DNA from: Oscarella lobularis
Taxonomy: Eukaryota
Reading direction: 5' to 3'
DNA length: 64,000 bases
Assembly (NCBI RefSeq): GCF_947507565.1
Contig: NC_089177.1
Coordinates: 490,648 to 554,647 of the forward strand
Shown here in pieces: positions 30,435-60,159 of the stretch; the stretch's first letter is position 1; each line of letters begins with the position of its first letter. The notes below the pieces were generated by a model. The model worked only from the letters and a program-made list of their open reading frames with translations. It made no database searches and was not told the DNA's origin. A program made the translations under genes and the position numbers.

Positions 30435-30648
30435 TTTTTTTTTCGATGTAGTGTATTATTCTTTGTCGAGCAAGTTGTGTACATGCTGACCCTTCCCCAA
30501 GCCCTTTTTGTTAGGCAGCCCCTTATCTTTTTTTCCTATGTCATGAATTAGCGTAGAAGGACGAAAAAGACCTGAAAACGAAATCGTGTCAATCTGCTTA
30601 CGGCATTTTGCGATATCAATTTGTCACGTGCTACTGCAGGGGCGGAAC

Positions 30649-33213
30649 ATGGCATCGGTGATCGGTCTAAAACCGCTCGAGTACGTTCACATATTGGACG
30701 TTAACACGAGCGTCTCGTATGTGGAAACTGGCCCTCAAACAATATCTCTGCAAGACAACGAACGACTGACGGCGGGCCCCCATCCGTTCGTCGTCGTGCC
30801 CCCGGGTCGTTTCTGCATCGTTGAAGATCCCATCGATGCTACGACGTACGAAAAAGGAAAGCAGCCGCGCGTGCGCTTCGGCTCGCTCGACGTGCGCTTC
30901 CACGGCGAGCCTTTCTTTCTCTATCCGGGAGAACGACTTCAAGGAGCACCCAATTTAGCCAATTACAAGCCGGCACTCAAACCGCTTCCAGTCATAAAAC
31001 CGAACCACGGCCTCCGCCTCCGCGCTCGACACGATCACGTCGACGAAAACGGAACGAAACACGTTGCAGGCGAAGAATGGCACCTGGAGGGTCCCCTCAC
31101 CTACAAACCGACTCCGGACGCGGAAATCGTCGACACGATTTCTCCCGCCATCGTCGGCCCAAATCAAGCGCTTCGCTTTCGCGCGCGCGAGCGTTTCGTC
31201 GATCGCACGGGCGCCGAACGCGTCACAGGCGAAGAGTGGCTCGTTCGCGAAGCGGGCGCCTACGTGCCGCACGTCAGCGAAGAAGTCGTCGGCGTCGAGT
31301 CGGCGCACACGCTCACGCGCGATCGGGCGCTGCACGTGCGCGCGCGCGTTACGATCGACGGCGACTCGGCTCTCGGAAGCGCGCGCAAAACCGGCGAGGA
31401 GTGGCCTGTCACGTGCGAAAACGTATCCACCTTTATACCGGACGTGACGGAGGAAGTCGTCAAAGTCGTCAACAAAACGATTCTGACGAATATTCAATAT
31501 TGCGTTGTCGTCAATCCGGTTATCGACGGGAAAAATCGTCTCAGTCAACGACAGCTGCGTCGAGGTCCCGCCGAGTTTTTCCTATCGCCCGGGGAACACC
31601 TGGAACGCGGCATTCAGTCGGCGTTCATACTCGCCGTCGACGAGGCGCTCGTTCTCCGCGCAACGGAGGCGTTCGTCGACGACGAAACGCATCGCGCGCC
31701 CGGCGATCGATGGATGATCGAAGGTCCGACGTCGTACGTGCCGCCGACTCAAGTCGTCGTCGAGCGTCAATCGAAAGCGATACCGCTGGGCGAGAACGAA
31801 GGCGTTTACGTGCAAGACACGCAGACGGGTGCAGTGATCGCCGTCATGGGACCCCAGTCCTATCTACTCAAAGAACACGAGCAGCTCTTTGAGAAAAAAC
31901 TACCGGACGACGTCGAGGAGATGCTGCGACGCGGCGGCGCCATCGGCGACGACGACATTCGCAAGGTCGCTTATTTCGAATCGTCGATCGATCCGAGTCT
32001 CGTTCGATCCGGTGCGCGCGACGCGACGCGCGTCGTTTCCTATCGTTGCCCGGGCAACGCAGCGGTGCAGGTATACGATTATCAGCGTCGCACGGCGCGC
32101 GTCGTTTTTGGCCCAGATATGGTCATATTGGGTCCCCACGAGGATTTCAATGTGTTGAGCTTGAGCGCTGGGAAGCCGAAGCGTGAGAATGCGCTTCGCT
32201 GTCTCGCGCTCATGCTCGGACCCGATTTCATCACCGACATCATCGTCGTGGAGACGGCGGATCACGCGCGTCTGCGCATCAAACTTGCGTTCAATAATTA
32301 TTTTGACGTGAATTGCGACGACGTGGCGGACGCGGCGAAGATTTTCGCCGTGCCGGATTTCATTGGATTCGCCTGTCGCGACGTCGGGAGTCGCATTCGA
32401 AGTGCCGTCGCGCAGACGCCGTTCGACGAGTTCCATCGGCACTCGTCGCGGATTATACGAGCGTCCGTTTTCGGGCTCGACGCTCGGGGCAAAGTGAAGA
32501 ACGAGTTGCGATTCGCCGCGAATAATCTCGTCGTGACGAACATCGACGTGCAGAGCATCGAGCCCGTCGATCGTCAGATGAGCGATAGTTTGAGCAAGAG
32601 CGTTCAAATGGCTATCGAGATTGCCACGCAGGCGATCGAGCGTCAGGCGTCGCAGGAGGCGCGGAGACGCGAGCAGGAAGCGCGCGGCGTCCTGGAGCGG
32701 GAGAAATTGAAGGGGGAAATGGACGCGGAACGCGCCCGCATGGAGCTCTATGAATTACAGGCGATCAGTGCGGCCGTGGAGTCGACCGGTCAAGCGCAGG
32801 CCGAAGCCCAAGCGCAGGCTGAACGGCTTCTCATCGAAGGCGAGAGTGCGATCGAGTCGACGAAGCTTTTCGCCGAGGCGCAGGATGTTGAACATTCGGC
32901 GCTTCTCGACGCGAAGAAGAGATCGAATGAGGGCGAGTTGGGTTACGTGCGCGCGACGAATGAGCTCGAGTTGGCGAAGGCGAAAGCGTTGGCTGGGATC
33001 GAGGTCGGGAAGTTTCGGTCAATGGTGAGCGCGTTGGGATCGGAGACGGTTGCGGCGATCGCCCGCGCTGGGCCCGAGTCGGACATGCGTTTGTTGAAGT
33101 CGCTGGGGCTGCAGTCAACGTTGCTGACGGATGGGAAGAGTCCTGTCAATCTGTTCAACGTCGCTGGGGGATTGGTTGGAGCCACGATGGCAACGTCAGG
33201 CGATGCCCAGTGA
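30649..33213 (+). CDS. MVP: Major vault protein, intronless.
   Basis: Single 875-aa ORF. The N-terminus MASVIGLKPLEYVHILDVNTSVSYVETGPQTISLQDNERL matches the MVP start [37 protein letters not shown]. MVP repeats, a shoulder and a coiled-coil cap-helix region follow. Confidence 0.9.
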   Translation: MASVIGLKPLEYVHILDVNTSVSYVETGPQTISLQDNERLTAGPHPFVVVPPGRFCIVEDPIDATTYEKGKQPRVRFGSLDVRFHGEPFFLYPGERLQGAPNLANYKPALKPLPVIKPNHGLRLRARHDHVDENGTKHVAGEEWHLEGPLTYKPTPDAEIVDTISPAIVGPNQALRFRARERFVDRTGAERVTGEEWLVREAGAYVPHVSEEVVGVESAHTLTRDRALHVRARVTIDGDSALGSARKTGEEWPVTCENVSTFIPDVTEEVVKVVNKTILTNIQYCVVVNPVIDGKNRLSQRQLRRGPAEFFLSPGEHLERGIQSAFILAVDEALVLRATEAFVDDETHRAPGDRWMIEGPTSYVPPTQVVVERQSKAIPLGENEGVYVQDTQTGAVIAVMGPQSYLLKEHEQLFEKKLPDDVEEMLRRGGAIGDDDIRKVAYFESSIDPSLVRSGARDATRVVSYRCPGNAAVQVYDYQRRTARVVFGPDMVILGPHEDFNVLSLSAGKPKRENALRCLALMLGPDFITDIIVVETADHARLRIKLAFNNYFDVNCDDVADAAKIFAVPDFIGFACRDVGSRIRSAVAQTPFDEFHRHSSRIIRASVFGLDARGKVKNELRFAANNLVVTNIDVQSIEPVDRQMSDSLSKSVQMAIEIATQAIERQASQEARRREQEARGVLEREKLKGEMDAERARMELYELQAISAAVESTGQAQAEAQAQAERLLIEGESAIESTKLFAEAQDVEHSALLDAKKRSNEGELGYVRATNELELAKAKALAGIEVGKFRSMVSALGSETVAAIARAGPESDMRLLKSLGLQSTLLTDGKSPVNLFNVAGGLVGATMATSGDAQ

Positions 33214-35316: not shown

Positions 35317-37233
35317 ATGGACGCTATTTTGAGAAAGAACTTCGTGTTTCTGCGTCGCAATCTTCGCCTGAAGAAGGAATTGTTAGCTTATATGTTTCAG
35401 GAACATTTAATCGATGACGAGGAATATGATCAGTTGGAAAACGAAGCCAAATCAGAGCCGGAAAGAGTTAGGTACTTCATTATGACGGCAATGAGAGGAA
35501 AAACGAAGTCCGATTTACGAAGACTCGTTCAAATGCTCAGAAAAACAAACCAAGAGCCAGTCGCTCACCGTCTCGAACGTGCAAACGTCAGAAAAAAGAA
35601 ATGGTCGAAACGACTGAGGAAAAGGGCGATGCCTTACCTTTCTAGTCTGGTAGTATTTGTGTTTGTACACAAGTTGCTCTGGCGTACGTACCAGGCGAAC
35701 AAACCGCACGTTGAAAAGGTCCTCAAAATAATCTTCGGTAAAAGGCCAGAAATTAAAGAAGGAATTATGCCGGAGAACTCCAATAGCGACACTTCTGACC
35801 CATCAAAAAACCACACACTTGAGATTAAGGAAAGAGTAAAACTGCGCTTTTATTTTCCAAATCTACCAAAAGACACCTACAAAATAGTGGAAGAAGGTCT
35901 CCGATCCAGTCTTTCACTTTCTCTGGATCTTCCCAGAGACCTCTTAGAGGTGTTTGCAAAACCGTTTTCGTCAGTTCTTGTCATTGTCATTCTACCTGGC
36001 GCTGCTGCGCTGAAATTGTTTTCCATTTTGTCTAAGCCTCTACCTAATTTTCTGTATGAAAAATACGGGCCAACTCGTCTTAAGATTGAGAGTTTGCGCC
36101 CAATGAATATTTTATTTGAGAAGGCTTTTGGTATGTAACTTGTCAGAAGATAGAGTATAACAGTACATTTTCTATTTCCTGTAGAGCGGAACTGGGGCTC
36201 ACGAGCTTGGATCCAAGGTCAAGTGGCCCGTCTAAACGAATGTAGGAAAAATTTTCATCAACTCAAGACTCAGTTATCTTACTGGCTACCCCCTCCGTGG
36301 TGGCAAAAAGCAACAAAAAACCGTTTCAGGAAATTTCAGAGTCAACTGGATCACGTTCAAGATGAAATGCAGGCCTTGAAGGACAGTTTCAGCAAGCTGA
36401 GTCTCCTGCCTAAACCCCAGGCTGTTGAAGTTTCTACGCAAACCGAATTACAAGAAGGTACAGGGAACGCCTAGTAGGTGCAATGATTGATTAATTAGTT
36501 ATTAATCCTAGACGATGGCAGATGGTCAGAGACAATAATGTTTCGGGAGTCTTTTTCTCCACAAAGCGGTTTTGCCCTAATAATTAACACCGTTTCACCT
36601 GAAAGTGAATTACATTCTCAAGCACAATCAGAGACAAATAGTCTTCTGTCTACGTTCAAAAAGTTGGGTCTTGTTTGCAAAACAGAAACAAGCGTTAAAT
36701 CAGGTGACGTGAGCGATACACTCGAAAATTTTGGCAATTGCGACTACGCAAAGTACGACTGGCTAGTGTGCTGTCTCCTGGTAGCCATGGAGAAGATGAA
36801 AACAGGCCGTGACTCAGCGGAAGACTGCTCGCCTCTGTGTCTTCACGACATTATGGCGCCGTTTAGAGAATCTAGATGCCCTACCCTTAGTGGAAAGCCT
36901 CGCGTTTTTATTATCATTTCGCCAGCTGGAAGGTCAATTGATGAAACTGGCGATATGCACGTGGAATTCAAAGACGATGAATGGACTTTGCGAGAGGGTT
37001 ATGTTCCCAAAGACTGCCTGCTGCTAGTGTTTCATTACCCCGCTCCAGAGGACAAGCGCTCTTCTTTCGCTACATCATTGCTTGATAATCTACAACAACA
37101 AGGTGGGCAGTTGAACGATGTGGAAGAACTGCTCTTTATGGCATATGATCAACTAATTGATAGTCTGCTTTGGTCTTCGGTGTGGAGTAAGAATACGTTG
37201 AGTAAGGCAATAGAGGTGGCTCTTGAGACTTGA
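35317..37233 (+). CDS. CARD - coiled-coil - caspase-like (peptidase C14 fold) protein that lacks the catalytic dyad, i.e. a pseudo-caspase. Exons 35317-36130, 36185-36457 and 36512-37233, all joined by about 54-bp phase-1 introns.
   Basis: N-terminal death-fold: ILRKNFVFLRRNLRLKKELLAYMFQEHLIDDEEYDQLENEAKSEPERVRYFIMTAMRGKTKSDLRRLVQMLRK. Middle exon is a coiled coil. Last exon aligns to caspase p20/p10: GFALIINTVSPESE...LLSTFKKLGLVC...YDWLVCCLLVAMEK (AME where caspases have SHG) ...RCPTLSGKPRVFIIISPAGRS (SPAG where caspases have QACRG). Donor, acceptor and phase were checked at each junction. Confidence 0.65.
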
Positions 37234-37337
37234 CAAGTTCTACATTTTTTTGCGCGATGATGTTTTATAGACTTTTTCAGACTTTTATTTTGCCCATTGG
37301 AGTTGAAGGGGAGCACACGTGATCTGCTGCGAGGACT

Positions 37338-37946
37338 ATGAGCCGCTACTACGAAAAGTGCATTCGGCCTCGACTAACGGAGCTGATGAAGAGAATCGAC
37401 GTTACTGATCATCAAATGCTGAGCTTCATGAACCAGGAAAAGATGCTGTCGGACAACGACCAACACAATCTGGAATCCACTTCCCTGATGCGACCCTCTG
37501 AGAAAGATAATCTATTCTTTCACACCATTCTAAGAACCGGACTGGCCACGGAAACTCAGTTCCGCGCGTTTTGCGCCGCTTTGACGAAACGACGAGGAGC
37601 CGAAAAGGACGATTTGGCTCAATCTCTTTTGAAAGGCGCCGGCCTCGAAAGTGAAAGCGCGTCGCGTACTTCGTTTGAAAGGAAGCCAACTTCTAAAGAG
37701 CTGAACAACTTATCGAAGCTAATAGCGAGCGACGACATGTGGAAGCCGCTCGGCAGATGTCTCGATGTTCCGGACTCGAAGTTGACCGAAATCGCAGCCA
37801 CGCATCATTCTCCTCGAGAACGAGCGTACCAAATGCTACAGTCGTGGGTCGAAAAGAACTCGAACGCCGCAACGGTGAAACTACTGTGCGAAGCACTCTG
37901 TGAAGAGGGTCGCGACGATACGGCAAAGGAAATTTTTGGCTGGTGA
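37338..37946 (+). CDS. CRADD: CRADD/RAIDD-like adaptor (CARD + death domain), single exon.
   Basis: 202 aa. The N-terminal CARD is a paralogue of the CARD at 33429. The C-terminal death domain reads ELNNLSKLIASDDMWKPLGRCLDVPDSKLTEIAATHHSPRERAYQMLQSWVEKNSNAATVKLLCEALCEEGRDDTAKEIFG. Size and architecture match human CRADD (199 aa). Confidence 0.65.
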   Translation: MSRYYEKCIRPRLTELMKRIDVTDHQMLSFMNQEKMLSDNDQHNLESTSLMRPSEKDNLFFHTILRTGLATETQFRAFCAALTKRRGAEKDDLAQSLLKGAGLESESASRTSFERKPTSKELNNLSKLIASDDMWKPLGRCLDVPDSKLTEIAATHHSPRERAYQMLQSWVEKNSNAATVKLLCEALCEEGRDDTAKEIFGW

Positions 37947-38158: not shown

Positions 38159-40776
38159 TCAAGACGCCGTTTTTGTCCAGCTAGGAACTCCGTATGCCGG
38201 ATCGTCGACCGCACTCTGCTTCAGCCTATTTCCGGCCATCATATCGTCCGCCGTCACTTCGCTATACGCTTCGTCGTCCTCTTCACCGTCATTCGTAACA
38301 TTGATGTATCCAGGTTGATCCCTAGCCACATCCTCGTACGCTCCTAGACCTTCTTCCTCAGGAAAATCGACGTTGTGATACGGTATTCTTCCTCTTGCTC
38401 CTGCCGCCGCAGGAGCAATCGGTCTGTCCTCGGGATAGTTAACGTTGAAGTAAGGCGGATTATCGGCGGGCGGCATCTCGTACGGCGATTCCTGAGTGGC
38501 AAAACGTCTTGGCTTAGGAATCGTCGCGTCATCAATCGTCATTTCGTCCAAAATACTATCAATGACGTCAATTTCCTCCTTGCTAATCGTTAAGGTTTTG
38601 TTCGACGGCGTAATTTGTCGGGGCATCGGAACTGAAGCGGACGCCGCAATCGCCGCCGCAACCGCCGCTCGATCGGTACTCAGTTTTCGTTTACTTGTCG
38701 GAAACTCGTCCCTCGCTAATGTACTGTAAGGACTCATAGTGCGATTGGCATGTTCGGCCAGACCGGCCATTAGGTCGTCGAGCTCAGCGTCGTCATAAAG
38801 CGGGGCGTCATCGTCAGGAGCAACAGCGGCGACGGCAGCGGCGGCGACTTTCTCGTTCGGAAGAACCAATCGATCGTATCCGACAGATCCTCTCTTCGGT
38901 TTGGGAGGAACGACTTTTTCTTCTCTCGGTGGCAGCGGATTTTTCTTCGGCGGAGGAGGTTGATGCCGCGGCGGTGATTCCGCAATTGCAAATTTTCCGT
39001 CGCCAGCCGAAAAGAGAGTATCGTACGGCGTGACCGGCTTCACCGCACCGGCGTCAATCTGATCCTCCGTTTCGTAAAAGTGCTCTTCAGGATTTTCCGG
39101 AATCGACGTCGTCTCGTTGACCGTCACAGTCTGAACAAATCGCTGTTTGAGGGAACCGTGCGACGGCACCGCAGGCGGCTCCGTCACTGTACTTGAACGC
39201 GGTTTAGCTACAGGGGGAACGGGCTGCGGTGCTCTTGCACTCCCTGGTCGATTCGGTAGGGGATTTGCTGGCGTCGGCTGCGCTTGTACCATGTCGGCTT
39301 GGCGAAGGCTCGTGTGCTGTTGGGAGCCGATTAGTTTCACGTTGTTGTGCACGTGGTGAAAGATTTCGTTTCCCAGTCGGGTGCCGAAGTAGAAGACGCC
39401 CGGGCCCGTTTCGCATTTTCTGCCCGCTTCGAATGTGAATTTCGTGTAGTCGCGACCGTAGCGTCGCAGATACTTGAGCGGCCAAACGCAGATGATTTCG
39501 TTGGAGAGAACACTGGCAAGAGTTATGTTCAGTCCCGATATGACGAGATGGTATTCGCCGACCAGTTGCAGTGCCGTCGAAGCTTCAGTCGGGATAATCG
39601 ACACACGATAACGTTTTTCTGTAACAAAAAAGGCGTCATTTTGAGGTAAAAAATCTATCCCTGGCTATTTATAGGAAGTAAGTGTACATGTCATTTCTTT
39701 ATATTATTCTGTGCTAGAAACCCGTTCACAAGGGATCTCGTCTTCTTACCAAGCTCCATACTGCTATAAAGCGTGTTCTCCTGGACGCCCAGCGGCTGAT
39801 TGGGAACAAGAAACGGGTTTCCTTCGGGAGGCGGCATCGCCATTTGCGGTTGCGGCTGCACAAAAGGATTACCGGCACCTCCTTCCATTGCAAACGGCAT
39901 TGGTGCTTGCGACGGCGGCTGCAACGCCAACGGATAACCGGCGTCTCTTCCGCCCTGGATTGCAAACGGGGGCGGCGACAAAGGTGGCTTTCCTCCGAAA
40001 CCGTCGCTTGGAGAACCGAACGAACCGAACGAAGAATTCTGAGGTTCTGACATGTATGCGGGTGGCGGCGATCCCGGCGGAAGCGAACCGGCGTCGTCGC
40101 CGAAGGCGACTCGCGATATACCGTCGATCCAAACGTCGAGATCGCGTTGAGTCGGCAGAGCGAATCGATAGTGCAGCACGGGCGTGAGAAGGTCGAGAAC
40201 GAAGCTTTTCGATTTATGCGTCGTCTGATTGACGGCCGTCACTTCGCGCAGGGGAATGATTCGTCGGCTGTTCTGTCGACGAGCGTGGTTCATGTCGGGA
40301 TAGTACTCGAGTCGCGCGCTGCCTAACGAGCCGGCACTGCGCAATACGAACCACCTCTTGTTCCACGTCTATAAAGCGAAAACGTTATTTGTTTGCGGTG
40401 AGAGCCTTTTGATTTCGGGGAAGGACGCGCGGTGGGGGAGGAGTCGCGAGGATAAGATCTAGCTGACCCAAACGCTGCAAAAATGGCAGCATTTGGCTCT
40501 GAGTTTGTTGACTTTATACCCATACCAGAGACTCGGACTTAGTCAACGGACTGGGGGGACTGCGTTGTAATGGGAGGGGCTTCGTGCTTGCAAAACGATC
40601 TATATTTAGTTTTCATTCAGATCTCTTTTTAAGTTTTGCTACGATAGCAGTATTCTTCGGTTTGCTGCTGGAGTGCGCTTTCGCAGGGGATTAGATTTTC
40701 GTTGCCGTTTTACCTTGAAGGCTCCTGGTTGTTGAGGGCATTTTTCCATGTAGCCCTCTAATGCCACGTCGGTCAT
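38159..40776 (-). CDS. DOK/FRS-like docking protein (PH + IRS-type PTB). Exons (minus strand): 40714-40776, 39750-40368, 38159-39618.
   Basis: Exon 1 reads MTDVALEGYMEKCPQQPGAFK. Exon 2 reads TWNKRWFVLRSAGSLGSARLEYYPD...FALPTQRDLDVWIDGI and completes the PH domain. Exon 3 is the PTB: VGEYHLVISGLNITLASVLSNEIICVWPLKYLRRYGRDYTKFTFEAGRKCETGPGVFYFGTRLGNEIFHHV. A Pro/Tyr-rich tail follows. Introns are phase 0 then phase 1, GT-AG, verified. Confidence 0.65.
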
Positions 40777-45158: not shown

Positions 45159-48100
45159 ATGAACGACTCGATCGACGACCCGTCCCTACTCGCCGTCGCC
45201 GACGGCGCGTGCGCGCGCTCGTCATCGTCGTCGTCTTCGGTCCGATCGGACACATACGTTCAAGATGGACCAAATATCGAAGAATCGGTGCCGTCGCCGC
45301 CGCCTCCGCCGCCGCCGCCGCCCGAGTCGCGATCCGTCGCCGCCGCCGCTTCGATCGACGTCGTCGCCCAATACGATCGTCTTCTCGACGGTATACGAAA
45401 TCGAGACTTGACGGCCGTCACGTCGCTGCTCAACGAAACTCCCGATCTATTGAAATCGCCGGCGGAGTTTCATTCGTCCAAAGACGACGTCAGCGCGCGG
45501 GGGCGCGGTCAAAACATGACAGCGGCACGTGCCTTGTCGGCGGCCATATGCGCGGATTCGTTTCACATGGTTAGCTTCCTTTTGGAAAGGGGAGCTCATC
45601 TGGTTCCGGATGCGAAACGTCCGCCCACGCCTATTGGGAGCGAAGAGAACGACGACGACGACGAAATGATCGATCCGTTGATATTGGCAACGCGTCGCGG
45701 CGACGGCGATCTCGTGCGACTTCTTCTGCGCGGCGGCGCGACGCCGATTGCGCGCGATCGTCAAGGACGCACGGCGATGCATTGGGCCGCCGAGCGACGC
45801 GCGCGCGACTGCGTCGTCGCGCTGCTCGAAGCCGGCGCGCCGATTCGCGTCGACGACGACGACGGCGTTCAAGCCGTCGATCTGATGCCCGACTTGGAAG
45901 CGCGACAATCTCGTCTCGTGCGCGATTCGCTCGAAATTTTCGAACAGAAGCAGACGTCGAAGGATCCGACGGCGTTGATACGGAAACGACGGCGCGGCAC
46001 GATTGGAATCGATTCGTTGATTTTTGCCGCCGTCGATCCGGCGTCGTCGCTTGGCGGCGGCGGCGGAAGCGCCGTTTCGGACGAGGTGAAAGCGTTGGAA
46101 ATTTTGACGGGACTTTCGCGAAACGACGAGTGTCTGCCGACGATCTTGGCCGGCCTGCCCGACTGCATACCGGGCATCATACTTCACTCGCAACTCAGCT
46201 GGGGATCGGATATGAGCGACGCCGTCACGAAATTCATGAGAAGTATACGCAAGGTACTATCGAACAGCTGGCCTCATTAACACATTTGACGTTGATTGGG
46301 TTTTTTTTTTGAAGGCGACTTTGAAGAGTCTCAATAATAATCAAGGTCTCTTGATGCAGTGCGCTTTGGAGTTCGTTCAAGGCGGTCAGGAAATGCAGGC
46401 GGAAGCGCTTTGCATTATCGACGATTTGATTGAAGCGAATCGAGCCGATTTTACGCCGTCATCGTCGCCGTCGTCGTCGTCGTCGTGCAACTTTCGTCTT
46501 CACGTCTCGCATCGTCCCGTCGAGGCCGTTCTCTCGTCCGCCTCGTCGTCGTCTACAGCGACGTCGTCGTCGTCGACGGCAACCGAACGTACGATGACGG
46601 CGACAGCGGAATGTCCGTCGTCGCCAATTGACGTTCTCTGCATGACCGATCCGTCGCCGCTTCTTCACGTCCTCTCCAGCGCGCTCGCGATTCACTTCCG
46701 ATCCGGTATCGGGGGACAGTGCGCCAAAGGAGTCAATTCCATGCAGCTAATCGTCGCAAAGGCTCTCGCCGTCGCCAGCCTATCGCCGACCATGCAAAGC
46801 CGACTCGCAAAAGATCATCACGCAAAGTCTTTATTGGAAGTGTTAGAGAAAGCGACGAATCCGGTAAGAACCAGTCTTAAAGAGACCACCTGTCTATTGT
46901 GATCGCTCTCGCTATTATTTTTATAGCGGTCGCAATAGGCAGCAATTTGACACTTCCACACTCTATTTCTCTCTCCCTCCCTCACGCAGGTTGTCATTGA
47001 CTTGACGCTCTGCATATTGGCCTCCCTCGTCGAAAATCCTCAGCATCACGAAGCGCTCGCGCGTCTCCAAGCGTCCGATCGCCTGCGCGCCTTTCTCCAA
47101 TCCGCCTCTCTTCGTGTTGGGGGCAGTGCGGATAGCGGCGCGCGCGCTCTCCTACCCCAACTCCGTCATCGCGTCGCCTATCTCCTCGTCGCGCTCGGCG
47201 CCGTCGCCACCGAAGCCGATCAACTCGACGGCGTCTATCTGTTCGCGTCGATGGTGAAAAAATCCCAAAGCGGAGTCAGCTGTTTTTCGATTCCCGAAGA
47301 CGACACCAACGTATTCAATCTGCGTCAACGATTCGGTTCCCAAGGAAACGGCGACGACGACGACGACGACGAAACGTCGAAACGATTCGTCGCCTCTCTA
47401 CCCAACGTTCTCGCCCCCGTTTCCATAATACGTCATTTGACGTCAAATTCCGAAATAGACACGGACGCCTTTTTGGACTTTTTTCTTGGCGTCGCCGTGA
47501 CGGCACTCCATCCGGTCATATTTCTTCGTCTTCTACGTCACAGTCTCTTCTCGCATCCCGCCTTCGTTCTGCTCCTTCGACCGTCGAGACGACGTTCGAG
47601 TCAGAATTCGTCGCTTCGAAGCGGACGCCGTAGCGTCGTGTCGCTGTCGTTGCCGTCCGGCGGCGGTGGCGACGACGCGTGGGAAGGCGTCGCGATGCCG
47701 GAGTTTCATCGGCGCGTTTTGCGAGTGTTGACCGAGTGGATGAAACGCTACGGGGCCGACGTGATGGACAGTTCGCTCGCCGCCGAAGAGATTAAGCATT
47801 TTATGTTGGATTTGCAGGCAGTCGGGTTTGGCTACGAAGTGTGGGTTGAGCACGTCAATTCTCTGCTCGTCGCTCAGGTGAGGGAATATTTGGCCACCAA
47901 AGTGAATAAATATATGATCATTTCTTTGTTTTTATTAGGATGTTCGATTGATTAAGAAAAAGTCGAGTTTGTGTTTGATGACGGAAGACGATCTACGAAG
48001 TCACTACGAGAAAGTAAGTGTCGTCGTATCTAAAAAGAAATAAAAAAAACACTATCTTCTTTTAGTTAAAAATTCAAATTCTTTCCGACGAATTACCGTG

Positions 48101-48881
48101 TCCGCCTGCGAGTGCGACCAAGCTGGCCAGTCTTCAAATGATCATCGAAACGATTGGATCGTCGAAGCCGAGCCAAGACGAAAAGAGTCGGTCACCGTCG
48201 CCCGGCGTCGCGCTTCGGCACAAGTCGATTCACGACATCGGATTCAGATTGTCGAAGGCGACGCTATTCAGCACCCTCGTCGGCGGCAACAAGGCCGACT
48301 ACACGACGGCGAAATTGAAAGCCTATCTGCCGAAAAATCTCGTATAATTGATCGTTGTTTTTCCTTATCGCTTATTTTTTGTTTTTTTTTTCTCTCTTTA
48401 GGCTCGAACTCGTCGCTGGCGCGAGGAAGTCGAAAAGCATCACAAACTCCTCGCGGCGACGTTCGCCGCCGATCCGGACGACACGGAACTCCGCGCGATG
48501 GAGCAGTACGTCGACGCGTGCGAACAGCTGCCCGCTTACGATTGCCAGCTCTTTCGCTTGAAACAGATAACGAAGAAACGCAAGGTAAGAAAAGAGGAAA
48601 TCGTAACTCTCCTTTTTTTTTATAAACGAGTTTTCAGGAATTGCGCGTTTTCGGTCTCGGCACCGATCAGGCGATCATTCTCAACGGTTCCGACTACAGC
48701 CTTCTCGCAACGCATCCCCTCTCGACTCTCGTCCTGCCGCGCCAACGCAAGGGCAGCGGCGGGACAAACGAGAGCGAAATACAAATCGAATTCAAATCCC
48801 AAGAAGTCTACGCCTTCACCTCATCCAAACCCGTCCTTAAATCTCTCCGCGAAGCCGTGCAGCTATGCATTCGGGATATCC

Positions 48882-48924
<43 letters not shown>

Positions 48925-49536
48925 CGGCGGGCGTTCCAGCAGCACTAGCGGCGTCGACGGCGAAGAAACCGACTCATTCGACGATACGGTCATGATGCGA
49001 ATGACGGCGGCGGCGGCGGCCGGAGCGGCCACGGCGGCGACAAGAAAGACGTTCAAGACGTCGTCGAACTCGTCGTTGCGATCGGTTCACGACGAATTCG
49101 CCTCGTCGAACGAGAGGCTCGCCAACTTGGCGTCGTTTATCGGTTTTCCTGAGGAAGTCGCGCGACGGTTGACGGAGCGCGAGGAGAAATTGTTTCGACT
49201 CGTTGCGCCCGCCGCCTACGTGCGACACGCGCTCATTGAACGAACGGAGTCGGCGCGACGATCGCGAACGTCGAAGAGTCATACGACCGTGTTGAATTTG
49301 GCGAAGCGTTTTGGAAATGTTCGTTGAAGGAGGAAAAAATGAAGGGGAGCGACTAATTCGTTTTTTTAGGTTAGTGGATGGGTGAGTCGGTTGGTTGCTT
49401 CTGCGGCGAAGGTGGGCGATCGTCGCGTTGCGATTTCGTCGCTGCTTCGCGTCGCCGCGGCCTGTCGCAATTTGGGAAATCTCATGGGAATGATGGAAGT
49501 TCTGACTGGACTAACGTACGTAGAATCATCTCTAAA

Positions 49537-49578
<42 letters not shown>

Positions 49579-52500
49579 TATATCGATTCCTTAGATCTCA
49601 ACACGAGGACGTTCTCAATTCGTCGCTCTCGCCCAAAGATCAAGAGCTTCTCGCCGGAATGATCAAACGATATCCCGTCGACGCCGAACTCGACGATCTG
49701 CTCGACGCAATGCAACGCACGCGCGAAATGAACGGCGGTCACGTCGTTCCCTACTACGGTTGGTTTCTCAAACGATTGAGGGACATCATGGCAAGCGTTC
49801 CGTCAATCGTATTGATTCCTTCGGGTAATAATATTAATAATTAGACGATAAGCGCTTACGCGTTATTCTTTTATTTCAGGAAACGAATCGCGCTCGTTGG
49901 AACGCACTATCAATGTCAATAAACTCAAGCGTCTACGCGAAGTCTTGAACAAAATCAGCCTATTCACCGGAGAAGCGAAAGACGATCTCACGTACGCACT
50001 CCACTCAATTCGCACAGCACATCACTTTTCACCCTCTCCTAGTTCTCCATCGGCGCTTCCCATCGACGAACACGCGGGACCCGATTTCGAAGAGTGCGAA
50101 GACTCGCACGTCTTTCTTCCCATCATCCCGTTCGCCTGCACGGGACTTCGTCCGCACGAGCATCGTCGTCTCCTCTTCGGCAGCACGTTCATTCGCTGGG
50201 AGGACGGCGGCCTTCGTTCGACGGCGAGCGTCCTCAAACTCTACAAGTGCAACTCGCGATTGAAATATTCGCCGGCGCGCTGGGCCGAAGAGAAGCCGCG
50301 CGGTCGCGACGAGCAAAACGACGTGAACAAGCCGGGAGACGACGATTCGTCGACCGGCGGAATGATATCCGTTTTTCACATCAAAGACATTCGTCTCGGC
50401 GTCGCGCCCAAAGACGAGAAGACGCTCGTTCGTCGTCACGGCATCAATTGGTTCAACGCCGTCGATTGCTGTCTGATGATCGTCTACGGCGCCGGCGGCG
50501 TCGCCGACGTCCACTACGCGAATTTCGTCGCGCCGGCGGCAATCGTGCGATTCTGGTACGACGCGTTGGCGCGTCTGCTCGACGCCGTACGCGCGCACGT
50601 TCAACGACCCGATCAGCGTCCGCTCTGGCTTCGAAAGACCTACTACGGTATCGAATCTCAGAAGAAGGGTTTGCCGACTGTGAGCGAGAGTTGCTTTGAG
50701 TTTGGCGGTCGCATTTGGGCTCGACCGGCTTTAACAGTTCAGGTATGGGTAGAAAAAATCGATTAATTATTAAAATTAATTCTTTATTTTTTTAGGAATC
50801 GTTTGACGGTGATAGTGAAGTCGATTTGTCGCGGCAGCTTCGCAAGCGCTACACGTCGTCTACTTCCTGGCGTGCGGTTGCCTCCGCTATCGCCGACGGC
50901 GACGCGAACGGGAGTCGTCGCACGTTTCGAAAGACCGACATGCGTCGAGTCGTTTTGCCGGCGCTCGCCGAGTTGGGCGACGAATTCTCGCCCGATCGGG
51001 AACTCGATTTCGCGTCGTTTTGCCGACTCTACGAAAGCCTCTCGGCGCTACATCGTCCCGACGTGCGACGTCTCTTCGATCTCTTCGCCTCCGTCGATTT
51101 GAACGACAAAGGTGACAGCGGCGGTAGCGAGAACGGCGACGAGTCAAAACGACACATGGGTCTTCAACGAAAACAAGCCGTCATCAGAATGATGACGTCG
51201 TCGGCGACGATGACGACGACGGGAACCGGTTCCGTGGCTACGTTGCCGACTCCAGGGAGAAAATTGAGCCGAGGCGCCGTTGGGTCTTCGTCGCCGACGA
51301 CGAGTAGCAAATCGAAAGGGAGTTCCGGTTTTAGTTTGCTCTCCGTCGTGCAAATGGCGATGTCGTCGCCGACGATGCGTTCTCGAGCGGAGACGGGGGG
51401 CGTGACGGGGGCGTCCGACGCGCGGCAGAAGTGGAAAATGGCGGCGATAGCGAAGAGGGGCGGCAGCGGGAGGAATTCGGCGGCAGTGCACGTTCGAAGT
51501 GGATCGGAGCCGGATACGAGCGAATTGGACGATGGCGTTAGCGCGGCGGCTGCAGCTGCGGCTGCAGCTGCAGCGGCCAAGTTGAAGCGGATGAAAATGA
51601 ATGGCAGAGATCTGGTACGTTTTATGAAGTGCGAGCAGTGCGAGACATTGACAGAAAAAGAGGCCGAAGAAAAGATAAAGGTGAGAGAAATTGACGCAGA
51701 GAGTTGAACAAAAGAATTAACATTTTTTGTAAAGAAATACGAAACGGATAAGGATCTGGTCGAGAAAAAGTTGCTTTCTTACGAAGGCTTCATGCGGTAA
51801 GTAAGAGCTGATTGTTTTTATTCGTTCTTATAAACTTCGCTGTTAGAATGATGTTGTCTGATGAAAATTATGCATATGAAGTTGAGAAATCGATTGTAAA
51901 TGAAGACGTACGTTAATTGATTATTATATCAATCTTTGTCATTCTATACTCTCGTTTCGTAGGAAATGACTCATCCCCTGTCGCACTATTATATCTCCTC
52001 GTCGCACAATACTTACCTTACAGGCTATCAGCTCCGCGGCGAGTCATCCGTAGAGATATACAGACAGGTAAAAAATCACATATACGGTATTAATTGAAAG
52101 TCATTACGTATTTAATTTTTTAGATACTGCTCTCCGGCTGCCGCTGTATCGAACTCGACTGCTGGGACGGCGATGACGGCTATCCCATCATCACGCACGG
52201 GCACACGTGGACGACGAAGATTAAATTCAAAGTCAGTCAATAGATATTGTGAAACGTTAGAAAACGAGATCGTGTTTTTTAATTAAGGACGTCATTTACG
52301 CAATCAACGAGACGGCGTTCGTGACGTCGCCCTATCCGGTAATACTTTCGTTCGAAAATCACTGCTCCATACCGAAGCAGCAAGAAATGGCTAGAATATG
52401 CGAAGTAGGATAAAAGAATTGCACTCTTTTGATTCAAAATTTAACGTTTCCTCTGGTTGAAGGACGTCTTCGGCAGCAAACTCGTCAAAAGTTGTCTCTT

Positions 52501-54796
52501 CGACGCCGACTATCAGCCTGATCCGCGACTGCCCTCGCCCGAGCAGCTCAAGTACAAGATCCTCATCAAAAACAAGAAAAAGCCGCCGGATGCGTTTTCG
52601 CAGCAACAACTGTTAGCACGAAACGTTGAACCGGACTTTGATGACATCGAGGAAGAACTCGGCGACGACGGCGACGGTAAGTCGCTTGCATTCTTGTTTA
52701 TAATTATAACCCCATAATGCATGCAGACACTCAAGGCAAATACGGAACGCTCTCAAGACGTCAAAATCCGTCTGGAAGCGGTCTTCTTGACGACGACAGC
52801 GGCGGCGCGACGGAAGGCACCGGCACGCTATCTCGCATGAGAGGTCTCGATTTTCGAATGTCATTGGACCGTGCGAGCTACGACGCCGCCGCCGATCCCA
52901 TGGGCGTCGGCGGCAATCTCATGTCGCCTGAACCGACGTACAAACGGCAAAAGGAGACGAACAAAATCGCCGACGAACTATCTCGTCTCGTCATCTACAC
53001 GCAGGCGATCAAATTCACCGGTTTATCGTCCGGACTTCCAACGTCTATTTCCTTTCCCGGCGGCACGAGCGGTGCGAGCGGTGTGAGCACGACTATGCTC
53101 AGCTCTTTGCTCGAAGACCAATCGTCGTATACTCCGCCGTCGCGACGCTCCTCGTTTGCCGTGCCGCCGCCGACGCAGCGACCGCGTGCCGCCTCGGAGG
53201 TTAATCCGGCGACGATCAGTCTGATTTCGCGCAAGGCGAGCGATCGGAAATTGTCGTCGCCCGAACCGCTGCCCACGTGGTCGTCGCCGGGGCAACGACG
53301 ACCGTCGATTTGCAGTCGAGCGTCGTCGATGAATTCGTCGACTGCAAGTAGCTGCGGCTACGATGGACTCGTCGCGTTTCGGCTCTCCGGTTCGGGCTCC
53401 GCGCCCGGATCTTCGTACGATTTGGCGAGAATGAGTGAAACGCCGCGCGCCTTTCAAATGTCGTCCGTCGGCGAAAGCACGGGAAAGAAATTGGTTAAGA
53501 AGCAGTCGAATGAGCTTATCGTGTAAGATAAAGGACGTTTCGCGTTGGGACGCAATTCCACTTGTGATCGATCCCTTGTTTATAATTGTTCTCTTTTTAT
53601 CTGTAGTCACACTGAGCTGCAGCTGATGCGCGTTTATCCGGCAGCGAAACGCATCGACTCGTCGAATTTTAATCCGCTTCAGTTTTGGCTGTGCGGACTG
53701 CAATTTGTCGCTTTGAATTATCAGACTGAGGGTACGTCGATTTTATTAATTAATGTATTCGTTGTTGAGTGTTCCTTAGATTCGGCTATGCAACTAAATC
53801 GCTCCATGTTCAGTCAGAACGGCGGCTGCGGTTACGTTCTGAAACCGTATGTCTACTGGAGTCACTCGGCTCCATTTACGACGTTCAATCCTTTTGAAAC
53901 CGAACAGCCAAACGTCGCCCCGTTGACAGTTACCGTAAAGGTAAATAGGAACATCTACATGAAAAGAGAATAGGCACACGACGCTTTTTCTTTATAGGTT
54001 GTATCTGGTCAGCGGCTAAGTTCCAATTTTACCACGAGCGTTTCGGTTGAGGTGGAATTGACGGGCATCCCCTCGGATTACAACAAACACAAAACGAAAC
54101 AGTCTAACCGAAATGCGTTGAATCCCGTGTGGGACGAAACGTTCGTCTATAAGGTAAAGAGAGATCTCGCGTTGCTTGCTGCAAAAGGGCACGTGCAATT
54201 CTTTTTTTCAGGTGGCCTTCCGTGAGCTTGCTTTTGTTCGATTTACCGTGTGGGAGTCGAATTCTCAGACACTGCTTGCCCAGCGAGTCGTTCCTTTGCG
54301 GCATCTCAGACAAGGTTTGAAGAGAAATAAATAGCTATAGTGTAGTTACATGTATATTAAACGCTCTCTTTTTTTTTTCCCCCTATAGGATATAGACACC
54401 TTCGGTTGCACTCAGCACAGGACAGTCCCCTGGAGGTTGCAACGCTTTTTATTGCTACTCGAATGACAGAAGATTACGAAGAAAGCGACGACGGCACCTG
54501 CACTGGCGGGTGGGATTATCAGCGTTTACATCACGAAATTTGGCGTGAAAAAAATGTGCCGGTAAGTTGTTCGAGCGTCTGCGTGCGCTCCGCCTTTTAC
54601 GCCGCGTGTCTTCATGCAGACTTGTCCGGAAGAGCGACGCAGTTCCGCAGATAGCATTGATTGTGAGCGAGTCACTGAGGAGGAAAAAGGAACGTCGGAA
54701 GGTACCAGTAACGACAAAAACAAAAACAAGAATTCGAACTCCGAAACGGACAGTTGGACTCGAAAGGAATTTAACATTGTAAGGTACGACGTGTAA
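45159..54796 (+). CDS. PLCE1: PLC-epsilon-like phosphoinositide phospholipase C with an N-terminal ankyrin-repeat region. Architecture: ANK - RasGEF(CDC25) - PH - EF - X - Y - C2. Many exons.
   Basis: ANK: [59 protein letters not shown]25-like: [34 protein letters not shown]...[20 protein letters not shown]: [17 protein letters not shown]...[14 protein letters not shown]: [35 protein letters not shown] / [36 protein letters not shown] / [12 protein letters not shown]: [42 protein letters not shown]...[10 protein letters not shown]2: ...[11 protein letters not shown]...GYRHLRLHS. No RA domains follow the C2. Confidence 0.7.
48889..48935 (+). repeat. (GGC)n coding microsatellite (poly-Gly) inside the PLC-like gene
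   Basis: ggcggcggcggcggc... Confidence 0.9.
49531..49575. repeat. (GA)n microsatellite, intronic
   Basis: agagagagagagagagagagagag. Confidence 0.9.
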
Positions 54797-54990: not shown

Positions 54991-57302
54991 ATGGCCGTCA
55001 ATCTTTCCAAGTACGGCAAAGAACTCAAAGCGGCGTACGAAGACGTCATCAGCAACTCGTCGGACACCGACTGGTATTGAAACAGGGACGACGTCGCTTT
55101 CGCACGTCCAATTTGCATGTGCAGGGCTCTTTTCGGCTACGACAAGCAGTCGAACGACCTGAAAGTCGTCTCGACGGGCGGTAAGACCTGGAAAGAGTGC
55201 AAGAACCCAAGGAGATCCTCCGCTTTAGACGGCGGATTCGACGAGCTCGTCGACGAAGTAAACGGCTCTAAAGTTCAGTATGCCTGGTGCAAAGTGACCG
55301 ACCCGAACACGAATCTACCGAAATTCGTTCTCGTCAATTGGGTGAGCGTATCGTGCACCCAAAAGGGGGCCCCTTCTCTATTTCTCCTCGCAGTTCGCCG
55401 AAGGAGCGCCGAGTTCGCGACTGGGCGTGTGTCAGAGACACGTTCGCGACGTGGCGTCGTTTTTACGCGTACGTGGGTGCCCGTGCCGTCGATTTTCGCA
55501 TTTCCTCTCGATTCCGCTTTCTAGGGGGCCCACGTCACGATCAACGCGCGAAACGAAGGCGATCTCGACTCGGACGTGATCGTCGACAAAGTTTCGAAGT
55601 CGTCCGGGTCGAATTACAGCTTCCACAAGGAGAAAGCTCGACCCGTCGAGCCCCAAGGACCCGTGGTAAGAAATTCCTAATTTTCAATTAATTAATCAAA
55701 AAGTTAATTAAAGCAGTGCCTAAAACGTTTTATGACGTCATAATTCAGCAATGACCCTCACATGTTTCGTTTTTCAGGGTTCTGTGTATAAGAAGGCAGA
55801 CGCCCGGACTGATATCGTTCCAGAGAAAAGAGATGAGTTCTGGGCTGCGCAAGATGTTGGGATTTTTAAAAATTGACGTTGACTTGTGAGAGACTATTCA
55901 GTCTTTTGATATAGAAAGCCGAGGAGCAGAGAAGAGTGGCTGATCGTAAGGCTCAAGCTGAGGCGACTCGAAGAAAGGAGGCGGAACGAAAAGAACGCGA
56001 GGTCAGACCTAGGCTCATCTATAGTCCTCTTTGCAAGAGGAGTGTCATCTGACCTATTCTGTGTTTTTTAGGTCCAAGAGACTGCTCGTCGTGATCAGAG
56101 AGTTGCTGAACGGGCTCAAGCAGTTGAAACGCAGAGGCAATACATTTCTATTCTCGAATTTCACTGTACTACCATAACAATTGGACGTGCGTTTCTTCAG
56201 AAAGAAAGAGAGGGAGGAATTGAAGAGGCGACAGGAGGATGAGAAGGCTCACTACAAGGCCAGAATGGAGGAACTGGACGCAGAGACGGAAAGAGACAAG
56301 AGACGAGCAGAGGAATCGCGGCGACGTCAGAGAGAAGAGGTAAGAAAACCAAGACAAAAAACATACATACAAGTCAATACTGAAATCTCTTTGTGTCTAA
56401 AAGGAACGTCAAGCCATTGGAGCTGCAGTTCGTCAGACGAAGGAAACGGTCGCCGAACGGCAGGCCGAAGCGCGCGAGGCTCAAGATGAAGCCGAACGAG
56501 CCAGACAGGCCGCCGAAGATGCGAGGAGAGCCGTAGACGAGGCCCGTCGACAGAGGGACGCCGAAGCGGAAGCGGAAGTAAGTGGCCCTGAGAACGAATC
56601 TTAGAGCGTTTGGAATATATGTATTAGGCCGAAGCGGAAGCTGCGGCGGCTGAAGAGGCTGCTCGCGAAGCGGAAGAAGCGGCAGCTCAGGCGGAGGAAG
56701 CAGCCCAGCAGGCAGAAGAAGAACTGGTTAATTAAACATGCGTTTACGGTATATATCTATATATCTATATGTATTGTAGGAAGCAGAACCTGAACCTGAA
56801 GCTGAACCTGAACCTGAACCCGAACCGGAGCCAGAGCCAGAGCCGGACGAGGCTATGTACGGAAACGTTGAACCAGAAGCCGCTGCAGTTCCAGCTGATG
56901 AACCTGAAGAGGCTCTTTACGATGACGTAGATGAGCAGCAGCCCGTTCAGCAAGAAGCAGACGATGGCCTGTACGATACAGTTGAACCGAAAGAAGAAGG
57001 AGGAGGAGGAGGAGGAGACGAAAGCCAAGTGAGTGGATACAGATATTCTATATAATAGATTTATCTCTTTGTTTTAGTCTGCTCGGGCTGTTTATGATTA
57101 CCAAGCTAGTATGGAATCTTTTCTCTGGTAATTCTCGTTGGTTACTTTGCGTTGCTTTTTTCTAGCCGATGACACCGAGATCTCGTTTGATCCTGATGAT
57201 GTCATAACGGAAATTGAACAAATTGATGAAGGTTGGTGGAAGGGCCGTGCCCCTGATGGATCTTTTGGGATGTTTCCGGCCAACTACGTCGAGCTTATTT
57301 GA
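54991..57302 (+). CDS. DBNL: Drebrin-like / Abp1 actin-binding protein (ADF-H domain, charged coiled region, C-terminal SH3), multi-exon.
   Basis: [19 protein letters not shown] | [27 protein letters not shown]...[25 protein letters not shown] | ...[15 protein letters not shown]|[36 protein letters not shown]. An E/R-rich exon and EPEPEP hexanucleotide repeats follow. SH3: [35 protein letters not shown], stop at 57300-57302. Confidence 0.8.
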
Positions 57303-59012: not shown

Positions 59013-60159
59013 TTTCGCGACGACGCTTTCTACGTCGTTTACACTGCAAATGCCACGAACGCCATATGCCGTTGTTGAGTCGAAGTCGCTCGTTTCGCTC
59101 TGGAACGTCGTCATGTTCTTCCAGTGTTTCCATTTGCGGATGAACGAGCCCCGTGCTGCCAAGACGACGACGTCAGAGGCGACGAAACGCGACGCAATTC
59201 GCTTGCCTGCAAGTAGCTCCGGCGATTCAGAATGCAATCGGGACGCTCTGTATTTCCATGAGCCCCTTCCTCAAGGACGTCGCGCACATGCGATGTCAGA
59301 GAAACTCGACACTCAAAACGGCCGAGGTCCCCTAAGGGGAAACGAGCGGAGAAAAACGCTACAAAGGCTTGCGAAGAAGGAAGACTCCAGATACCTTGGA
59401 CTCAAGCTTGGCACGGCTTCCGAACAGCGAAGAGCAACCTCTTGCAACAGCGAACAGCCGCATGCTCGCTCGAGCGCAATCTAAAAAGAGCTTCATGCTA
59501 AACTGGATGCGTCAGTGTGTAGAAAACGAACCCGAATGAGCCGAGGAGTCTCCGGTATCGATGAGGAGCGTTCGAGAGAAATCTCCTGCTCGAGGCGTCG
59601 AAGCAGCTACAGTACGGGACGTGAAGCACGTGATCAGAGTACATGTAATAGGACTGCATCAGCAGCTCCCGTACAAGTAAATTTGCTGCAGTACTTGGTG
59701 TTCAGATTTCTTTCTTTAGACATTTATTTTTTCCCCCGAGGGGATGCACCGAGCCCGGAGGTAGTGCAAAACCGGGACGATGCGCGAGAGAGGCGCAGCA
59801 AGCTGCATTCCTCATCTCTAATTCCAAAGATTAAGTTAATCTTGGAGCCGGGCGATGCCCGGCGTCTCAGAGATTAAACTGAGAAGAACAGATACTACAC
59901 TTGATCTTAGCCAAAAGGCCGAGAAGCGATAACGATGACTGCTTCGCGCTCGGTTATATACCCTTTCTAGGGTTACTTCAATTGTTGAGGATGGCGCACA
60001 AAAGTGATTCTAACGCAGCCGTAAGCACCAGATTCTATCTATATCTTTCATCTGTGCACAACGCTGTTTCGCTTTGGCTTATCTTTCGCCTGCTTCTTAC
60101 GTTCAGCTGACGACGTTCTGAGAGGAACGTTCTAACGTACTCGATTGTCACGTGATAAG

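Follow-up and report, generated by a model that had tools for sequence, protein, structure and literature searches.

A PLC-epsilon-type gene with an ankyrin-FERM front end and no RA domains in Oscarella lobularis

The stretch of Oscarella lobularis DNA analysed here, the window, comprises 64,000 nucleotides (nt) of RefSeq assembly GCF_947507565.1 (contig NC_089177.1, positions 490,648 to 554,647 of the forward strand), and it carries a gene for a phospholipase C (PLC) of the epsilon type that stops shortly after its C2 domain, without the RA domains of classical PLC-epsilon. Counted within the window, positions 45159-54796 (+) read as a single 24-exon gene in a hand-built model, with a coding sequence of 8253 nt for 2750 residues that is delimited by an ATG at 45159 and a TAA at 54794-54796 and runs in one open frame throughout. 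For annotation the point is that one gene of about 9.6 kb lies here, not an ankyrin gene and then a PLC gene. The full order of the encoded modules is ankyrin repeats (ANK), ARM-like repeats, REM, FERM F2-F3, CDC25, PH, EF, X, Y and C2, followed by a tail of 87 residues, and the parts are placed as follows.

45159-54796, plus strand: whole coding region, read as an RA-less PLC-epsilon orthologue, 24 exons, 2750 residues
45159-46253, 46315-46863, 46990-47901, 47939-48013, 48066-48341, 48402-48584, 48638-49318, 49370-49515, plus strand: exons 1-8
49595-49824, 49880-50742, 50796-51680, 51735-51796, 51847-51907, 51963-52067, 52124-52231, 52288-52404, plus strand: exons 9-16
52463-52676, 52727-53522, 53607-53731, 53780-53940, 53998-54153, 54212-54314, 54389-54561, 54620-54796, plus strand: exons 17-24
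45336-45956, plus strand: ankyrin-repeat domain of about five repeats, residues 60-266 (Pfam, AlphaFold, Foldseek)
46254-46314, plus strand: intron 1 (GT...AG; phase 0, length 61 nt) between the ankyrin exon and exon 2
46080-47121, plus strand: ARM-like alpha-helical repeats, residues 308-592 (AlphaFold, Foldseek, homologous blocks)
47413-47895, plus strand: putative REM (RasGEF N-terminal) helical domain, residues ~690-850 (weak Pfam RasGEF_N match)
47984-48883, plus strand: predicted FERM F2-F3 module without an F1 lobe, residues 868-1112, including micro-exon 47939-48013
49154-49926, plus strand: CDC25-homology RasGEF domain, residues 1203-1398 (Pfam RasGEF, E 4e-17)
50125-50607, plus strand: PH domain, residues ~1465-1625 (Pfam PH_14 at residues 1538-1621, E 3e-4)
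51591-51871, plus strand: EF-hands 3/4, residues 1936-1994 (Pfam EF-hand_like, E 8e-7; aligns with EF3/4 of rat PLC-epsilon)
51966-52579, plus strand: catalytic X half of the TIM barrel, residues 2008-2155 (Pfam PI-PLC-X, E 5.5e-61)
52580-53442, plus strand: long X-Y linker, residues 2156-2426, part of which aligns with the rat PLC-epsilon linker
53443-53847, plus strand: catalytic Y half, residues 2427-2517 (Pfam PI-PLC-Y, E 3e-35)
53926-54474, plus strand: C2 domain, residues 2544-2663 (Pfam C2 at residues 2544-2635, E 3e-11; rat alignment)
54475-54793, plus strand: C-terminal tail, residues 2664-2750 (87 residues), in place of RA1-RA2, with no Pfam match
54794-54796, plus strand: stop codon TAA, read directly from the sequence, at the position equivalent to the stop in related species

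The assignment to PLC-epsilon rests on the catalytic half. The best match among solved structures is rat PLC-epsilon (6PMP, and also 9AX5 and 9B13) at E 1e-153, with PLC-zeta at 7e-101 and PLC-beta at about 1e-100, and the database proteins nearest to the window sequence are annotated as PLC-epsilon. Each of the motifs SSHNTY, ELDCWDG, HGHT, ENHCS and RIDSSN lines up with its rat counterpart, and the catalytic-site residues are unchanged. Within the X-Y linker the window protein and rat 6PMP have in common the stretch LVIYxQAxKFxGLS (ELSDLVIYCQAVKFPGLS), a segment of the Y half aligns with rat RTYPAATRIDSSN, and the PH stretch was aligned to PLC-epsilon orthologues. The protein thus combines the catalytic X and Y halves, PLC-epsilon as its closest isozyme, a CDC25 domain that precedes PH, and EF-hands and C2 around the TIM barrel. 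The EF3 residues that contact RA1 in the rat protein (L1308, D1312 and N1316) show no conservation even in RA-bearing invertebrates, so that their co-variation with the presence of RA is uninformative.

What sets the protein apart is its end. The alignment with rat PLC-epsilon finishes with C2 (...RMTEDY), and the remaining ~128 rat residues, which make up RA1, have no counterpart. Pfam finds no RA domain in the 2750-residue protein even at E <= 1, and no match at E <= 10 in the tails of the window protein and of a related species, species B (assembly ERZ21742408); the equivalent segment of a spider protein scores RA at 3e-12. In tblastn searches with the C-termini of 11 RA-bearing orthologues, the alignments halt at C2 in both the window and species B. 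A profile of RA1-RA2 built from the post-C2 regions of 17 orthologues, with positive controls at 1e-23 and 1e-68, gave nothing better than E ~2-5 in six frames of the 64-kb window, of the species B locus (35 kb) or of the locus in a second relative, species C (assembly ERZ25072854; 21 kb). Downstream, a gene of the ADF-H/cofilin type (55081-55521) begins ~300 nt past the PLC stop, which leaves no room for RA exons.

The short end is also conserved. From GYR(H/Q)LRL to the stop there are exactly 116 residues in the window protein, species B and species C alike, and in all three a stretch of the form GW-x-Q-x5-[E/D/A]-W lies just past C2 (54502-54543 in the window). The proteins terminate in FNIVRYDV (54770-54793) in the window and in KVVYYDL and KVVLYNL in the two relatives. 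Because the stop and the terminal motif are conserved across divergent species, the short C-terminus is selected and not an artefact of assembly or annotation. The other database matches that have Y and C2 without RA are exon-bounded fragments. The conserved, selected RA-less form of PLC-epsilon is new, although orthologues of the protein are already in public databases. Since it lacks the RA1 and RA2 of classical PLC-epsilon, we class it within the PLC-epsilon orthology group as a derivative without RA.

An earlier note on this DNA, made from the sequence alone, had anticipated much of this. The start and end that it gave, 45159 and 54796, coincide exactly with the first and last codons of the 24-exon model, its ATG and its stop; its PLC-epsilon-type identity is borne out by the distance between rat PLC-epsilon and the next isozyme (E 1e-153 versus some 1e-101); the absence of C-terminal RA domains holds by Pfam, by tblastn and by the RA1-RA2 profile; and its "about 80 residues after C2" becomes 87 once the end of the C2 fold is set at about residue 2663 by the rat alignment. 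Its domain order (ANK, RasGEF, PH, EF, X/Y, C2) agrees with the Pfam hidden Markov models as far as it goes, but it overlooked REM and FERM F2-F3.

The gene model is backed by three independent lines: haplotypes, related species and orthologues. All 23 introns have GT-AG ends, are 37-126 nt long and link long stop-to-stop segments of the plus strand. By tblastn the model is collinear with species B and C from the ankyrin exon to C2, and identity to the window protein is 35-45% over the N-terminal half, rising to 55-80% over the X domain. Fine structure recurs as well: the micro-exon 47939-48013 (75 nt) corresponds to 25 codons in species B too, and the same species backs the junction at intron 8 (GLT/SQH versus GLR/SQN, the stroke marking the junction). 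The window itself is 100% identical to contig ptg000071l of the ENA assembly ERZ18545485 (hifiasm contigs), where an alternate haplotig over the PLC region is 98.3% identical to it (1.7% apart overall). Within the gene the haplotypes differ by one synonymous substitution in 8253 exonic nt versus five substitutions in 1385 intronic nt. Exonic indels are limited to 21 and 9 nt, both in frame and inside poly-Gly and poly-Asp runs, and indels of 1, 2, 5 and 6 nt all fall within predicted introns, both haplotypes keeping the frame. The 21-nt deletion of the other haplotype affects a (GCG/GGC)n run at 48882-48930 that encodes 13 glycines; intron 1 of the alternate haplotype carries a 1-nt insertion; and intron 8 is filled by a (GA)19 microsatellite (49537-49575) with a 2-nt difference between haplotypes. 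On this comparison the gene is under purifying selection.

Over a wider interval (35159-56280) the alternate haplotigs in ERZ18545485 are 97.4-98.3% identical to the window and carry many indels, so the source organism is a fairly heterozygous diploid. Haplotype divergence inside the PLC gene is far below that of the surrounding window.

The N-terminal half is built of modules that are most readily seen as folds. Tandem 33-residue helix-turn-helix repeats of the ankyrin type are found by Pfam (Ank/Ank_2 core at residues 129-233, positions 45543-45857, E 2.5e-10, with Ank_3 matches also), in the AlphaFold model (pLDDT mostly >90) and by Foldseek (TMt ~0.75 to designed five-repeat ankyrins). The model of residues 60-663 (mean pLDDT 75.9, pTM 0.75) shows about five ankyrin repeats and then ARM-like helical repeats, and its best Foldseek matches are engineered DARPin-Armadillo fusions. 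The ARM-like region is split by a Ser/Thr-rich disordered loop (residues 416-462), has pLDDT >90 over residues 308-411 and 469-592, covers both the exon 1/2 and the exon 2/3 junction, and has homologous blocks in Asterias, spider and tick proteins. The exon 1/2 junction, between residues 365 and 366, sits within a predicted helix of pLDDT >90, and the phmmer alignments to the spider and tick proteins run across it unbroken.

Farther along, the Pfam FERM_M model matches residues 873-1020 with 45.7 bits against a cut-off of 23.8, beginning 20 residues after REM. In the AlphaFold model of residues 660-1112 (mean pLDDT 74.8, and 85-95 in the FERM part) the REM region is predicted to be all-helical, and its helices run directly into a helical F2, followed by an F3 of seven strands and one C-terminal helix; no ubiquitin-like F1 lobe was found in this model, only helices and no beta-grasp lying between REM and F2. 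Measured against the definition of a FERM domain, the predicted fold supplies the F2 and F3 lobes but not F1. A sequence search of the region against solved structures gave no useful match and a fold search was needed: Foldseek places the module closest to talin F2-F3 (E 3e-8, TMt 0.68-0.78), followed by merlin, radixin and KRIT1. The RasGEF domain that comes after it, N-terminal to the PH domain, is collinear with the RasGEF of all orthologues.

Comparison with known proteins shows which of these features are unusual. Six taxa yielded long PLC-epsilon proteins in a HMMER protein search with residues 230-1413: Asterias rubens XP_033632686 (3526 residues), Parasteatoda XP_042900346 (2541 residues), Rhipicephalus microplus XP_075732545 (3505 residues), Trichinella britovi KRY51589, Mesorhabditis, and Adelges cooleyi XP_050438662. 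In each of the five that were run against Pfam (the six without Mesorhabditis), a single polypeptide carries ANK, RasGEF, EF, X, Y, C2 and RA, and FERM_M is detected in four of the five, Adelges being the exception. By phmmer the window protein is collinear with all six from ANK to C2, and we regard these long invertebrate proteins as its true orthologues. The five run against Pfam differ from it in keeping RA after C2 (Pfam RA, E 1e-11 to 1e-24), whereas the window protein, like those of its two relatives, ends 87 residues past C2. The earlier note had treated the ankyrin module as a departure from PLC-epsilon, which does not stand: ANK...RasGEF...PLC is the usual arrangement in the long PLC-epsilon of other invertebrates. 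Its statement that PLC-epsilon has no ankyrin repeats fits only the vertebrate form, and an ankyrin module that is normal in the long invertebrate enzyme does not amount to the "distinct PLC architecture" that it considered.

Vertebrate PLC-epsilon (PLCE1; rat 6PMP, 9AX5, 9B13) has the same CDC25-PH-EF-X-Y-C2 order as the window protein, and PLCE1 is not known to carry an annotated ANK or FERM domain. The two show opposite patterns at their ends: the vertebrate protein carries RA1, which belongs to the core, and RA2, to which Ras and Rap1 bind, while the window protein lacks both and has the ANK-ARM-REM-FERM front end. A 2026 review of PLC-epsilon structure reports neither sequence homology nor a recognised domain for the vertebrate enzyme's N-terminal ~300 residues, and uses neither the word "ankyrin" nor the word "FERM" (PMC13022664). 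In the literature we searched there was nothing relevant on PLC-epsilon with ankyrin or FERM domains, nor on RA-less forms, and the long invertebrate architecture seems to be undescribed there.

Another protein that resembles the window protein, with ANK-RasGEF-PLC-C2, is KAI0989876 of the acanthocephalan Pomphorhynchus laevis. No RA was found in that protein or in six frames of its 105-kb locus, a weak test, since that gene model is fused to a catalase gene and small RA exons could escape detection among the long introns of an AT-rich genome. In a rough distance tree of X+Y+C2, the window protein and species B form a branch of their own and P. laevis groups elsewhere; any RA loss there would thus be independent. 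The P. laevis model (on WNNJ02000227.1) joins the PLC-epsilon-like protein to a complete catalase, almost certainly two genes merged by annotation.

The FERM module invites comparison with other families. Its F2-F3 fold is like that of KRIT1 and talin (Foldseek E 1e-7 to 1e-8) at a sequence identity of 13-18%, and KRIT1 also pairs ankyrin repeats with a FERM domain. KRIT1 binds Rap1 through an F1-F2 surface, and the F1 lobe that forms part of this surface is missing from the window protein. In Epac and PDZ-GEF (RAPGEF) an extra domain, RA/ubiquitin-like, lies between REM and CDC25; the window protein also has an insert between REM and CDC25, but a FERM F2-F3 without the ubiquitin-like F1.

Could the ankyrin exon (45159-46280) instead be a separate upstream gene, with the PLC gene beginning downstream, as the earlier note had offered as an alternative? 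The ankyrin open reading frame (ORF) does have an ATG of its own and, were intron 1 retained, would end after 373 residues at an in-frame stop (46278-46280), and there are introns that contain AATAAA strings, one of them at 47906. Yet this stop lies inside intron 1, a mere 34 nt from exon 2, and the frame is carried through that canonical 61-nt intron, whose position and phase 0 are kept in species B at ~40% identity. Homology to the spider and tick proteins and a predicted helix both span the exon 1/2 junction, ANK sits on the same polypeptide in orthologues of several phyla, and a transcriptome ORF from a choanoflagellate has ANK, FERM and RasGEF on one transcript. We reject the alternative as highly improbable and place the ankyrin exons in the PLC-epsilon gene with high confidence. 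A less remote possibility, but an unlikely one, is that RA domains lie elsewhere in the genome, in distant alternative 3' exons, in a split-off gene or in a second canonical paralogue. The search for them covered the 64-kb window and loci of 20-35 kb in the two relatives, and the 3' side has been rearranged, since the downstream neighbour is ADF-H in the window and a MOCS1-like gene (radical-SAM/MoaC) in species B. Against this stand the equivalent stop, the conserved terminal motif and the identical 116-residue length in three species; in addition, the protein search with residues 230-1413, a query that does not include RA, returned from the window's own assembly only fragments ~100% identical to this locus and no second diverged copy. 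It is less probable still, and as improbable as the separate ankyrin gene, that the gene is a decaying truncated copy, an incipient pseudogene that owes its lack of RA to degeneration. A RasGEF score of 63 bits, which is rather weak, and long insertions of low complexity (poly-Gly, poly-Ala, Ser/Thr-rich) might hint at decay, but neither haplotype has a frameshift or an internal stop, the sole exonic substitution is the synonymous one, the catalytic motifs are intact, and architecture and shortened end alike are kept in species that are 35-45% identical in the N-terminal half.

Several points nevertheless count against reading the locus as a single, functional RA-less gene. The splicing of the 24-exon model is predicted from the sequence. 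The RasGEF_N/REM match (residues 693-813, 18.6 bits) falls below the Pfam threshold; at the corresponding place a Capsaspora homologue reaches 43.6 bits. The targeting roles discussed below, for FERM and for the C-terminal motif, are proposals. The terminal motif may be a remnant of RA1, but support is split: the profile relates FNIVRYDV at only 3 bits to RA1's first strand, which in orthologues reads KRRMFFLVVHGV, and MAFFT places the motif elsewhere. Finally, deletion of RA1 from rat PLC-epsilon lowers stability and reduces basal activity ~20-fold (PMC7427993), so an RA-less enzyme might be a poor lipase without compensation. On balance, we put at about 80% the probability that this is a single functional gene, a long PLC-epsilon orthologue of the invertebrate type that retains an ancestral ANK-ARM-REM-FERM front end and has lost RA1 and RA2 in three species.

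If so, how would such an enzyme work? It would probably still hydrolyse phosphoinositides to inositol trisphosphate (IP3) and diacylglycerol, and would still exchange nucleotide on a Ras/Rap-family GTPase through its CDC25 domain. Targeting would presumably fall to the PH domain and the N-terminal ANK-ARM-REM-FERM module. In FERM domains of the talin and KRIT1 type, F3 binds the cytoplasmic tails of receptors and acidic lipids are bound by F2-F3. The binding of Ras-GTP and Rap1-GTP to RA2 recruits and activates the lipase in mammals, where RA1 serves both to anchor PLC-epsilon to scaffolds and to stabilise its core (PMC13022664, PMC7427993). With RA1 and RA2 absent, the circuit of Ras-GTP/Rap1-GTP recruitment through RA2 cannot operate in the window protein, and there would be no RA1 to brace the core or to bind scaffolds. 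The rat C2-RA1 linker docks at the interface of the TIM barrel and C2 (PMC7427993); the conserved aromatic GW...W stretch past C2 may stand in for this linker, and we speculate that the Tyr-x-Val/Leu carboxy-terminus, which matches the class II PDZ-ligand pattern, could serve as such a ligand. An RA-less orthologue conserved in three species offers a natural test of which roles of RA1 and RA2 are universal and of what compensates for their loss, and the ANK-ARM-REM-FERM module of non-vertebrates bears on the question of what PLC-epsilon's N-terminus does.

The same front end points to a possible origin. Stand-alone proteins with the order ANK-(REM)-FERM_M-RasGEF are present in two unicellular relatives of animals, the filasterean Capsaspora owczarzaki (CAOG_03360) and the choanoflagellate Salpingoeca urceolata (EP00051_P007637, the transcriptome ORF mentioned above). 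These exchange factors share the N-terminal module order of the window protein and give weak collinear matches to it, but are without the PLC half. Their sequences suggest that PLC-epsilon may have arisen by the joining of an ANK-REM-FERM-CDC25 exchange factor to a PLC core, and the simplest reading would be that vertebrates later lost the ANK-FERM end. No description of such a fusion origin was found in the literature searched. More tentatively, and with considerable doubt, we speculate that the regulatory ends are interchangeable: starting from a pre-animal exchange factor joined to a PLC core, vertebrates would have kept RA1/RA2 and lost ANK-FERM, and the present lineage would have kept ANK-FERM and lost RA1/RA2, with FERM F2-F3 and a newly fixed C-terminus, a PDZ-type scaffold ligand, as the main targeting input of invertebrate PLC-epsilon.

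As to the surroundings, introns are few and very short in this compact genome. Among the neighbouring ORFs are those with a forkhead domain, a major vault protein, an SLC26 transporter, a caspase and a death domain, an IRS-type PTB domain and JmjC. The SLC26 sulfate permease with STAS (25683-27956, +) and the major vault protein (30586-33213, +) occupy one uninterrupted ORF each, of 757 and 875 residues. A death-domain ORF comes directly after a caspase ORF, with an IRS-type PTB gene on the opposite strand (36538-37946, +, and 38159-39604, minus strand). Next to the PLC gene, a 5'-nucleotidase fragment (~43090) lies upstream in the window and also in species C; a RING-finger gene (zf-C3HC4_3) sits between upstream genes and the ankyrin exon in species B and C, and in the contig of the window the ORFs called upstream of PLC include no such gene.

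Elsewhere in the window, a unit of 63 nt (21 codons) is repeated in tandem about 11 times over 11385-12298, with periods of 126 and 189 nt also, inside a 955-residue ORF (9983-12850, minus strand) with a Pfam PP1_bind motif for protein phosphatase 1, and a strong strand asymmetry at 10-12 kb (GC skew -0.21, AT skew -0.32) coincides with this repeat. A further strong purine/pyrimidine asymmetry spans 20001-22000 (GC skew +0.195, AT skew +0.308), with no tandem repeat to account for it other than a short TTA run at 20924-20949. The sole Rfam match of the window at the gathering threshold is a complete U2 small nuclear RNA gene at 59739-59930 on the minus strand (RF00004, 181 bits, E 2e-38).

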